A stretch of 64,000 bases of DNA, from assembly GCA_951406725.2 (NCBI GenBank), contig OX597823.1, positions 22,878,001 to 22,942,000 on the forward strand, read 5' to 3'. This stretch comes from Octopus vulgaris (taxonomy: Eukaryota). The notes beneath the pieces are model-generated. The model was not told where the DNA came from, did not search any database, and saw only the letters and a list, made by a program, of their open reading frames with translations. The translations under genes were made by a program, and so were the position numbers. The stretch's first letter is position 1. Every line of letters starts with the position of its first letter. Positions 37,456 through 41,410 of this stretch are shown in pieces.

Positions 37456-38032
37456 TATATTTATCTTGTTTCTTACATTTTTTTTTTCACATTATAACAC
37501 CAGAATTAAGGGCATTGATTTAAGACAAACTAGGCTTCATGTTTATGTTATGATTTATGATAAACTTCAAGGATATGAGAGAACTTATATCTCAAGTTTT
37601 TTATACTAATGTTTCTAGAATATTCTATGCATGTGGAGATAAAGGGGATGTTTCAATATAGTTCATACAGTTGACGTTCAGTTTGCAGTGTTGTTGGTTT
37701 ATATAACCAAGTAAGTATGTGTGATGGTTGCAATTGTTAGTGTGTGCTAGCATCTGTAATAGTGTTACCAGGTGTGTACATATCTACCATTTATAATATA
37801 AATATGAGCATGTATGTATGTGTGTTGATATACACCTACATACATACATATATATACGCATAATGATATATATATAACATAAGGGACTAAAGCCATCTGA
37901 ATATGGCTAGGGACAGGGCAGGGTGGTGGGGGTGTTACTGTTGCATTTAGCCCCAGGCGAACATCGACGTCACCAGAAAGGCTCGACACCGTCACGGTGC
38001 CCTAAACCTGCAAAGGGAGGTAATTCCCCGAT

Positions 38033-38106
38033 GAAGCGGAAACCACACACGGACCATGGTTTCAAGGTGTATTGCCTATCATCGGCGTGTGGTAGGCCTC
38101 CGCTTC
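38033..38106 (-). ncRNA. Type I hammerhead motif in the left arm (also 38393-38466, 38752-38825, and 39112-39185 with a core mutation)
   Basis: Reverse complement of the 39334-39407 motif. Confidence 0.78.
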
Positions 38107-39333
38107 CTCGACGAATTCTCTCTCTGCAGGATTTTCTTATATAGATTTTCAAGCAAAATAAATTTGCTGATTTCGAAAATCTGTTCGAAAGCAATAATAA
38201 TTCTCTAAAAGGAATATAGACAGTAACTGCTCGACAACATAAGGGACTAAAGCCATCTGAATATGGCTAGGGACAGGGCAGGGTGGTGGGGGTGTTACTG
38301 TTGCATTTAGCCCCAGGCGAACATCGACGTCACCAGAAAGGCTCGACACCGTCATGGTGCCCTAAACCTGCAAAGGGAGGTAATTCCCCGATGAAGCGGA
38401 AACCACACACGGACCATGGTTTCAAGGTGTATTGCCTATCATCGGCGTGTGGTAGGCCTCCGCTTCCTCGACGAATTCTCTCTCTGCAGGATTTTCTTAT
38501 ATAGATTTTCAAGCAAAATAAATTTGCTGATTTCGAAAATCTGTTCGAAAGCAATAATAATTCTCTAAAAGGAATATAGACAGTAACTGCTCGACAACAT
38601 AAGGGACTAAAGCCATCTGAATATGGCTAGGGACAGGGCAGGGTGGTGGGGTGTTACTGTTGCATTTAGCCCCAGGCGAACATCGACGTCACCAGAAAGG
38701 CTCGACACCGTCACGGTGCCCTAAACCTGCAAAGGGAGGTAATTCCCCGATGAAGCGGAAACCACACACGGACCATGGTTTCAAGGTGTATTGCCTATCA
38801 TCGGCGTGTGGTAGGCCTCCGCTTCCTCGACGAATTCTCTCTCTGCAGGATTTTCTTATATAGATTTTCAAGCAAAATAAATTTGCTGATTTCGAAAATC
38901 TGTTCGAAAGCAATAATAATTCTCTGAAAGGAATATAGACAGTAACTGCTCGACAACATAAGGGACTAAAGCCATCTGAATATGGCTAGGGACAGGGCAG
39001 GGTGGTGGGGGTGTTACTGTTGCATTTAGCCCCAGGCGAACATCGACGTCACCAGAAAGGCTCGACACCGTCACGGTGCCCTAAACCTGCAAAGGGAGGT
39101 AATTCCCCGATGAAGCGGAAACCACACACGGACCATGGTTTCAAGGTGTATTGCCTATCATAGGCGTGTGGTAGGCCTCCGCTTCCTCGACGAATTCTCT
39201 CTCTGCAGGATTTTCTTATATAGATTTTCAAGCAAAATAAATTTGCTGATTTCGAAAATCTGTTCGAAAGCAGCAAATTTATTTTGCTTGAAAATCTATA
39301 TAAGAAAATCCTGCAGAGAGAGAATTCGTCGAG

Positions 39334-39407
39334 GAAGCGGAGGCCTACCACACGCCGATGATAGGCAATACACCTTGAAACCATGGTCCGTGTGTGGTTT
39401 CCGCTTC
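39334..39407 (+). ncRNA. Type I hammerhead ribozyme motif, repeated at 39694, 40054, 40414, 40774 and 41134
   Basis: Stem I CCACACG/CGUGU(GU)GG is extended by GAAGCGGA/UCCGCUUC. Core is CCGAUGA, stem II is U-AGG-caauaca-CCU-U, then GAAA. Stem III is palindromic ACCAUGGU and the triplet is GUC, with predicted cleavage after 39388. Confidence 0.8.
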
Positions 39408-41410
39408 ATCGGGGAATTACCTCCCTTTGCAGGTTTAGGGCACCGTGACGGTGTCGAGCCTTTCTGGTGACGTCGATGTTCGCCTGGGGCTAAATGCAAC
39501 AGTAACACCCCCACCACCCTGCCCTGTCCCTAGCCATATTCAGATGGCTTTAGTCCCTTATGTTGTCGAGCAGTTACTGTCTATATTCCTTTTAGAGAAT
39601 TATTATTGCTTTCGAACAGATTTTCGAAATCAGCAAATTTATTTTGCTTGAAAATCTATATAAGAAAATCCTGCAGAGAGAGAATTCGTCGAGGAAGCGG
39701 AGGCCTACCACACGCCGATGATAGGCAATACACCTTGAAACCATGGTCCGTGTGTGGTTTCCGCTTCATCGGGGAATTACCTCCCTTTGCAGGTTTAGGG
39801 CACCGTGACGGTGTCGAGCCTTTCTGGTGACGTCGATGTTCGCCTGGGGCTAAATGCAACAGTAACACCCCCACCACCCTGCCCTGTCCCTAGCCATATT
39901 CAGATGGCTTTAGTCCCTTATGTTGTCGAGCAGTTACTGTCTATATTCCTTTTAGAGAATTATTATTGCTTTCGAACAGATTTTCGAAATCAGCAAATTT
40001 ATTTTGCTTGAAAATCTATATAAGAAAATCCTGCAGAGAGAGAATTCGTCGAGGAAGCGGAGGCCTACCACACGCCGATGATAGGCAATACACCTTGAAA
40101 CCATGGTCCGTGTGTGGTTTCCGCTTCATCGGGGAATTACCTCCCTTTGCAGGTTTAGGGCACCGTGACGGTGTCGAGCCTTTCTGGTGACGTCGATGTT
40201 CGCCTGGGGCTAAATGCAACAGTAACACCCCCACCACCCTGCCCTGTCCCTAGCCATATTCAGATGGCTTTAGTCCCTTATGTTGTCGAGCAGTTACTGT
40301 CTATATTCCTTTTAGAGAATTATTATTGCTTTCGAACAGATTTTCGAAATCAGCAAATTTATTTTGCTTGAAAATCTATATAAGAAAATCCTGCAGAGAG
40401 AGAATTCGTCGAGGAAGCGGAGGCCTACCACACGCCGATGATAGGCAATACACCTTGAAACCATGGTCCGTGTGTGGTTTCCGCTTCATCGGGGAATTAC
40501 CTCCCTTTGCAGGTTTAGGGCACCGTGACGGTGTCGAGCCTTTCTGGTGACGTCGATGTTCGCCTGGGGCTAAATGCAACAGTAACACCCCCACCACCCT
40601 GCCCTGTCCCTAGCCATATTCAGATGGCTTTAGTCCCTTATGTTGTCGAGCAGTTACTGTCTATATTCCTTTTAGAGAATTATTATTGCTTTCGAACAGA
40701 TTTTCGAAATCAGCAAATTTATTTTGCTTGAAAATCTATATAAGAAAATCCTGCAGAGAGAGAATTCGTCGAGGAAGCGGAGGCCTACCACACGCCGATG
40801 ATAGGCAATACACCTTGAAACCATGGTCCGTGTGTGGTTTCCGCTTCATCGGGGAATTACCTCCCTTTGCAGGTTTAGGGCACCGTGACGGTGTCGAGCC
40901 TTTCTGGTGACGTCGATGTTCGCCTGGGGCTAAATGCAACAGTAACACCCCCACCACCCTGCCCTGTCCCTAGCCATATTCAGATGGCTTTAGTCCCTTA
41001 TGTTGTCGAGCAGTTACTGTCTATATTCCTTTTAGAGAATTATTATTGCTTTCGAACAGATTTTCGAAATCAGCAAATTTATTTTGCTTGAAAATCTATA
41101 TAAGAAAATCCTGCAGAGAGAGAATTCGTCGAGGAAGCGGAGGCCTACCACACGCCGATGATAGGCAATACACCTTGAAACCATGGTCCGTGTGTGGTTT
41201 CCGCTTCATCGGGGAATTACCTCCCTTTGCAGGTTTAGGGCACCGTGACGGTGTCGAGCCTTTCTGGTGACGTCGATGTTCGCCTGGGGCTAAATGCAAC
41301 AGTAACACCCCCACCACCCTGCCCTGTCCCTAGCCATATTCAGATGGCTTTAGTCCCTTATGTTGTCGAGCAGTTACTGTCTATATTCCTTTTAGAGAAT
41401 TATTATTGCT

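Follow-up and report, generated by a model that had tools for sequence, protein, structure and literature searches.

A window of 64,000 nucleotides from the Octopus vulgaris genome (contig OX597823.1, positions 22,878,001 to 22,942,000) contains at window positions 37876–41410 a 3.5-kb head-to-head palindrome, in which two arrays of a 360-bp unit stand in opposite orientation and each unit has a predicted hammerhead ribozyme. This feature is probably a single young insertion of a non-coding retroelement, 360 nt long and equipped with a hammerhead (a retrozyme that lacks long terminal repeats, or non-LTR retrozyme), that was copied by a Penelope-type enzyme through twin priming on one RNA, likely a circular one in the case of long arrays. 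Membership among the non-LTR retrozymes, taken by itself, is assigned with high confidence. At the level of sequence, the noncoding tandem units fall within the 150–450-bp range of that class (no search aimed specifically at primer-binding sites or polypurine tracts was made), and each unit has a type I hammerhead layout with two features, U4C and U10.1–U11.1, that have both been reported in natural ribozymes. The copies are dispersed, with target-site duplications longer than 4 bp; these measure 10–15 bp at the five loci where the target is not pure TA and they can be read (the window, L033, L079, L180 and L045:9230–9791).

A previous sequence-only reading had described the feature as a single plain tandem array. 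Its coordinates, its 360-bp unit and its ten hammerhead layouts were borne out by sequence, repeat and motif analysis, as was the lack of a credible open reading frame (ORF), the longest ATG frame over four joined units being 50 aa. Tandem Repeats Finder instead split the array into 3.9 copies (37876–39272) and 6.0 copies (39263–41410) of opposite orientation. The claimed exactness of the 360-bp period holds for the right arm, with 0 mismatches across 39271–41410, but not for the left arm, which has three substitutions and one 1-bp deletion. Likewise, a complete hammerhead layout was reported for every unit, but nine of the ten are intact, the copy at 39125–39170 having its core G5 changed to U at 39162, and the cut positions predicted at 39388 + 360n apply to the six plus-strand hammerheads but not to the four on the minus strand. 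The 11 letters that recur on the two flanks are read as a target-site duplication, and the TA run beyond its right copy extends for ~400 bp. The arms meet in an inverted repeat between unit positions about 220 and 242, numbering from the first base 3′ of the predicted hammerhead cut, with an exact overlap of 2 nt; annealing of the two complementary DNA (cDNA) ends at this junction would give 8 of 9 pairs, as judged by eye.

It was found that the outer ends of the family lie at two fixed unit positions. Among 21 loci picked by similarity alone, 15 were two-armed, and 14 of these had outer ends at 218–223 and 176–178. Two anchored sets comprised 93 further loci from the 100 ends listed at position 222, and 46 of the ends listed at position 176 that fell outside the first set. 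For two-armed loci picked by the 222 end, the opposite end lay at 172–178 in 76 of 79 cases, the exceptions being 153, 166 and a 34-bp piece at 215; for those picked by the 176 end, it lay at 208–222 in 36 of 36. Ends near 176 and 222 are therefore paired in 112 of the 115 anchored loci, and the same end occurs twice in none. Dispersed arrays with variable start points had been anticipated, and the arrays are indeed dispersed, but their outer ends are fixed 46 nt apart and the inner junction alone varies. Of 107 simple inner junctions, 33 were blunt and 21 had one common base, with 2–7 in most others. Either arm can be far longer, and each of the two may consist of as many as about 15 units in tandem.

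The target was a TA run in most of the 21 loci selected without an end anchor, and the median TA run was 28 and 32 nt on the two sides of 54 palindromes, for which five bases of flanking TA had been the selection criterion. Single-armed copies lying between TA flanks were found for the 176 end (L035, L048, L216 and L236) and for the 222 end (L043–L045, L081 and L206). Since each site is found alone with flanking TA, each likely primes by itself. A long interspersed nuclear element (LINE) at the inner end of single-armed copies was considered and rejected, no plausible long ORF being visible by eye beside the junction in 24 loci.

The two-end rule, with sites 46 nt apart and a varying inner junction, points to the enzymes of Penelope-like elements (PLEs), and the retrozyme insertions were likely made by a Penelope-type enzyme. 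PLEs are characterized by an inverted 5′ copy, a 30–40-bp tail at one end and a bias for (TA)n, according to PMC8557442 and PMC3846280. The corresponding arrangement, in which the inverted copy stands head to head and the tail is confined to one end, was found here at the 112 of 115 anchored and 14 of 15 unanchored two-armed loci, together with an AT-rich or (TA)n target. As described in PMC11167929, a PLE protein purified from a lizard element can nick AT-rich DNA on both strands and extend each of them, and it begins synthesis at two sites inside the RNA, between which the tail lies. Mobilization of retrozymes by PLEs has been proposed in PMC7229834 and 10.64898/2026.07.22.740005. In the octopus genome, elements with reverse transcriptase (RT) and GIY-YIG domains insert in (TA)n, and the inverted copies had a tail at one end only in 3/3 cases seen (L182, L184 and L197). 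The array has no ORF and so lacks the RT plus GIY-YIG frame of an autonomous PLE; PLE protein matches occurred at 9 of 191 element loci and read as separate insertions nearby or within the same TA run.

Two coding PLE families were observed in the genome. The first, a young family (L188:1581–6372, L181–L196; G000, e.g. C5:1038900–1047899), has an open RT+GIY-YIG frame of 781 aa; a frame of 479 aa, for which Pfam gave no match, comes before it and overlaps it. This two-frame layout is unusual for PLEs. A homologue search with the 781-aa protein returned RT/GIY-YIG relatives, a few of them named from bivalve-symbiont assemblies, and gave no clade name; a motif search found no hammerhead in the pseudo-LTR (pLTR) of the family. 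The second (L197:2300–5480, L200 and L057) has a pLTR hammerhead with a CCGAAGA core, a U–U base and a palindromic stem III, as well as a 30-nt tail and an inverted 5′ copy, and shares the CCGA core and the U–U base with the retrozyme unit.

To judge from the genome searches, the retrozyme family is large. Similarity search, with 40 of 754 candidates scored, gave 311 matches, and the 150 matches listed had 99–100 % identity and were spread over many contigs. Pattern search found 817 exact hammerhead cores and exact TA junctions at unit positions 222 (224 junctions) and 176 (537 junctions), with counts of 0 in the reversed-pattern controls; insertion ends in the genome thus number at least 537. 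Arrays of more than 20 units were 99.4–100 % identical to the window unit. These values agree with the sequence-only reading of a young, dispersed, hammerhead-bearing and non-autonomous element. Older sister retrozyme families, with canonical or U3–A8 cores, show the same two-end palindromic insertions, and one old relative (L045:9230–9791) has a clean duplication of about 11–13 bp. A different short palindromic element, also in TA runs (L135:200 and L072:1721), has a CCGACGA hammerhead-like motif with a minimal stem II.

The same comparisons bear on the possibility that the palindromes are artefacts of assembly or amplification arising from fold-back chimeric reads. Tandem arrays and perfect palindromes do pose difficulties for assembly. 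However, the flanks are unmirrored, a target duplication is present, the arms are unequal, and the same end rule is found at more than 100 loci, in the older sister family and in coding PLEs, so that an artefact is scarcely credible.

The unit motif was predicted to consist of a 6-bp stem I extending into a long imperfect stem, a CCGAUGA core, GAAA and a palindromic stem III, with a stem II of three pairs above a U–U base (U10.1–U11.1). The core carries U4C, and both U4C and the U–U base are present in all window copies. None of 3000 base shuffles of the unit yielded such a motif (0/3000), and monomer folding gave z = −5.3. A search with hammerhead models had been suggested as a check, and Rfam gave no match at the gathering score for the window nor at E≤10 for two units. 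Because Rfam does not detect the U4C/U–U hammerhead, families of this kind are probably undercounted. U10.1–U11.1 is found in active ribozymes according to PMC3088659, and the axolotl HHR_Amex2, which has it, cleaves better as a dimer (PMC7229834); the dimer model is given in PMC4209133.

The motifs of relatives were compared among 211 sequences (1.58 Mb), with stems read through motif parsing; a MAFFT alignment of eight hammerheads put L035 out of place. In the relatives, stem III was palindromic in several differing sequences and some cores had the canonical U4; L045 had a two-sided change in stem I and L034 a covariation of U3–A8. Within the family, the 46-nt motif holds 5 of 38 common polymorphic sites, with none in stem I or GAAA, and polymorphism in stem III preserves the palindrome. 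The retained palindromic stem III, the stem I change of L045 and the U3–A8 covariation of L034 suggest that the hammerhead is under constraint.

To characterize the template, variants and arm lengths were compared between loci. Variants private to one of 101 compared loci occurred in all or nearly all units and usually in both arms (9/9 units in L042, 8/8 in L050, 13/13 in L074 and 13/15 in L089, with 12/12 in the single arm of L048). This lends indirect support to the earlier suggestion of copying from a unit-length template. Later growth of short PLE-type insertions at their own sites, through slippage or unequal crossing-over and with the units homogenized by gene conversion, would also account for locus-fixed variants, and such local amplification is both discussed and proposed in the preprint 10.64898/2026.07.22.740005. 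We nevertheless give this explanation little credence. Expansion in place should copy variants to neighbouring units, and there were 122 single-unit substitutions versus one common to neighbours, which disfavours later local expansion; both arms also tend to be long together, and the arrays of more than 20 units are nearly identical to the window unit, as given above.

The two arms of the 107 simple palindromes end short of the first cut site in 36 cases, whereas both extend across it in 50 and a single arm does so in 21, a coupling with an odds ratio of 16 (p 4e-10). First-pass stops lay within positions 1–90 in 93 of 114 cases, and the stops of 140 crossing arms were uniform round the unit (p 0.59). 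Inner ends fell at positions 2–5 in 7 of 254 cases and at 356–360 in none (p 0.047, crossing arms), which would bear indirectly on the predicted self-cleavage. The coupling of the arms, the crowding of first-pass stops and the uniform stops of crossing arms together read as two template classes, namely cut linear monomers and circles. Editing of the circle by ADAR was considered as a source of the locus-fixed variants, but there was a hint of it at most: the 23 template-level variants included eight A>G, seven G>A, three T>C and one C>T, in a tally from which one locus with three was excluded, as were variants occurring in more than two loci. At unit position 304 of L047 (G000:C6:88097500–88107499), A>G was observed in 19 of 22 units, with two returns to A and one deletion; mixed reading of a modified base, template switching and assembly polishing are candidate explanations.

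Under the preferred reading, arrays would be transcribed and their hammerheads would cut multimers to monomers, probably slowly or as a dimer, with some monomers ligated to circles as in known retrozymes. A PLE protein would nick both (TA)n strands ~11–13 bp apart, in keeping with the duplication seen, and one nick would prime at 222 and the other at 176, the two end positions observed. On a linear monomer, both cDNAs would halt before the cut site and leave short palindromes; on a circle they could run round many times, which would fit the length pattern. The two cDNA 3′ ends may then be joined blunt or at short homology, as at the junctions seen, and filled in. The fixed two-end palindrome in a TA repeat would thus exist because a Penelope-type RT/endonuclease likely nicked and primed both target strands on one RNA. 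In a more specific form, a dimeric Penelope-type enzyme would give each nicked strand its own fixed start on one 360-nt circle, and the two RTs would chase each other round it, writing a multi-kb palindrome in one event; we regard the case for this form as evenly balanced. If true, these hundreds of near-identical copies would for the first time document directly, in a genome, the insertion of retrozymes by a rolling-circle process, and the inverted-copy-plus-tail structure of PLEs would be explained in general.

Several observations weigh against this reading. The active fold is less stable than the circular minimum by 7.4 kcal/mol, so that cutting may be slow or dimer-dependent, and the U4C change, which lowers activity in vitro yet allows viroid infectivity according to PMC3088659, would likewise count against it. 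Comparison of the unit with 50 GIY-YIG loci showed no real similarity (from a family search with 150 of 6136 candidates scored), the best match inside a PLE having E 0.3–0.9, and the likeness of its tail to PLE tails is marginal (p 0.02–0.5, uncorrected). Contigs from four sequencing runs (RNA status guessed) cover the unit, and three of these runs (X2, X6 and X13) gave a closed 390-nt contig, which fits a circle or a tandem array and shows neither transcription nor a circle. The 34-bp inverted piece of L209 that ends at 215 faces a 222 end, the crowding of first-pass stops could also be due to stalling where the long stem lies, and arm lengths are correlated even among long arms (rho 0.35). 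Many single-unit variants may be post-insertion (C>T/G>A at CpG makes up 15 of 47), and the mirror test between arms given below is weaker for it. Lastly, both arms of L079 (605–2703) change family haplotype at the same template position, and one variant of L075 is likewise placed; the L079 pattern implies a mosaic multimer template or fold-back, as a monomer circle cannot give it.

Fold-back would involve the same element and enzyme with a single primer, the first cDNA folding back to prime itself, the other strand ending at the second fixed site and uneven central deletions trimming the palindrome. The coupled arm lengths, the in-register mirroring of L079 and L075 and the position of the window junction within a small hairpin are consistent with it, and self-priming has been proposed for PLE inversions in PMC3846280. 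However, it would need one-sided losses of up to 1–2 kb. The 176 arm was more than one unit longer than fold-back of the 222 arm permits in 15 of 70 loci, and 96 unit-private calls were unmirrored versus 6 mirrored between arms, with 12 complex loci left out, which argues against a simple fold-back. Where the 222 arm is shorter than one unit (53 loci), the 176 arm reaches more than 20 nt further in 18; moreover, both ends occur alone with TA on both sides, and the lizard enzyme starts at both sites and on both strands (PMC11167929). Overall, we consider fold-back unlikely.

Twin priming would not need a circle if the template were a linear multimer, transcribed from a parent array and left uncut by its weak hammerheads. 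The in-register switch of L079 favours this, U4C and U–U predict slow cutting, and uncut RNA is the dominant substrate of the lizard PLE according to PMC11167929. Against this, the single-unit variants of parents (295 calls/155 kb) should be mirrored in daughter arms and are so in only 2 loci, and variants fixed in up to 22 units demand a one-unit bottleneck at some generation. This explanation is thus also unlikely, marginally more so than fold-back, and twin priming with circles as the template of long arrays is preferred.

Twin priming of LINE-1 is similar in that both target strands prime on one RNA and the inversion is joined at short homology. In LINE-1, the internal site used by the second primer varies, and each arm is copied from a different part of a linear RNA, whereas in the octopus family the two sites are fixed and the sequences copied into the two arms overlap. 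Newt satellite 2 (PMC7229834), Schistosoma Sm-alpha and cricket pDo500 share with the present family the tandem repeats, the type I hammerhead and a very small palindromic stem III, through which two copies can pair as a dimer. Their cleavage and transcripts have been shown experimentally, whereas those of the present family are predicted; no description of a palindromic two-end architecture for them was found in the portion of the literature searched.

Metazoan non-LTR retrozymes (PMC7229834; 10.64898/2026.07.22.740005) share with the octopus family non-coding tandem units of 150–450 bp with GC <50 % and one type I hammerhead each, dispersed multimers, larger target duplications and co-occurrence with PLEs. 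The axolotl Rtz_353 with HHR_Amex2 is especially close, HHR_Amex2 likewise having a 2-bp stem III and a U–U base in stem II. The octopus family differs in its mostly head-to-head palindromes, two fixed outer ends, (TA)n target and U4C core. Endonuclease-bearing PLEs (Poseidon_Ac, PMC11167929; Adineta Pen2a, PMC3846280; Neptune and Naiad, PMC8557442) share the inverted 5′-truncated copy placed head to head, the tail at one end, duplications of about 9–10 bp, the (TA)n preference and a hammerhead upstream of two RT start sites. The family differs from these in having no ORF, a tail of 46 nt versus 30–40, multi-unit arms and no sequence link to the PLEs examined. Inverted retrozyme arrays, tails and octopus are not mentioned in the main text of PMC7229834 and 10.64898/2026.07.22.740005, nor in the accessible text of PMC7761336, and no account of the present family or of palindromic retrozyme arrays was found in the parts of the literature searched. 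Within that literature, the palindromic two-end architecture appears to be new for retrozymes, the element class itself being known.

The family bears on two questions. A route by which retrozyme RNA circles re-enter animal genomes is proposed in PMC7229834, and the process 'remains to be elucidated' according to 10.64898/2026.07.22.740005. The inverted PLE copy with its one-sided tail has been approached through the self-priming hypothesis (PMC3846280), with 'steps yet to be validated' (PMC11167929). Here, a single genome supplies intact candidate enzymes as well as fresh products by the hundred, each of them marked, with a template that is short and start sites that are exactly placed (176 and 222 nt after the cut), and both questions are therefore testable in one in vitro reaction. 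The insertions are near-perfect DNA palindromes of up to 8 kb and would be a likely source of long double-stranded RNA and local instability.

Table 1. Features of the retrozyme insertion in the window, and loci of older sister families
Feature	Position	Strand	Remarks
Left copy of target-site duplication	37865–37875	+	11 bp (11–13 counting shared end bases); same 11 letters at 41411–41421
Left arm	37876–39271	−	3.88 units, hammerhead-sense on minus strand; outer end at unit position 176
Type I hammerhead, intact	38046–38091	−	Motif position and stems
Further intact hammerheads, left arm	38406–38451, 38765–38810	−	Motif positions
Hammerhead with core G5 → U at 39162, predicted inactive	39125–39170	−	Sequence comparison
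Inversion junction (39271–39272)	39251–39280	.	Within a small natural inverted repeat of the unit
Right arm	39271–41410	+	5.95 units, all identical, with the hammerhead sense on the plus strand; outer end at unit position 222
Type I hammerhead, predicted cut after 39388	39349–39394	+	Recurs each 360 bp up to 41149–41194
46-nt 'tail' (unit positions 177–222)	41365–41410	+	At this outer end only, missing from the other end
Right target-site duplication (41411–41421) passing into (TA)n microsatellite	41411–41828	+	Sequence and Tandem Repeats Finder
Older sister families	L122:3375–3650, L241–L270, L045:9230–9791, L034:9664–9973, L035:2943, L117:5449		

Other repeats and gene-like matches were observed elsewhere in the window. 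Two broken mariner/Mos1-type transposase remnants (Pfam HTH_48 and Transposase_1) lie at 10156–11030 and 12324–13884, and LINE-type reverse transcriptase fragments (RVT_1 and zf-RVT) lie outside the array at 35286–35669 and 55820–57726. A short ion-channel pore match (Ion_trans_2, E 2e-5) was found at 27205–27504 on the plus strand and a weak G protein-coupled receptor (GPCR) match (7tm_1, E 0.002) at 32736–33047 on the minus strand; these could possibly be host exons, in which case the array would perhaps be intronic. SINE-like repeats, which we take to be octopus types, flank the insertion on both sides at 37065–37450 and 41830–42400.

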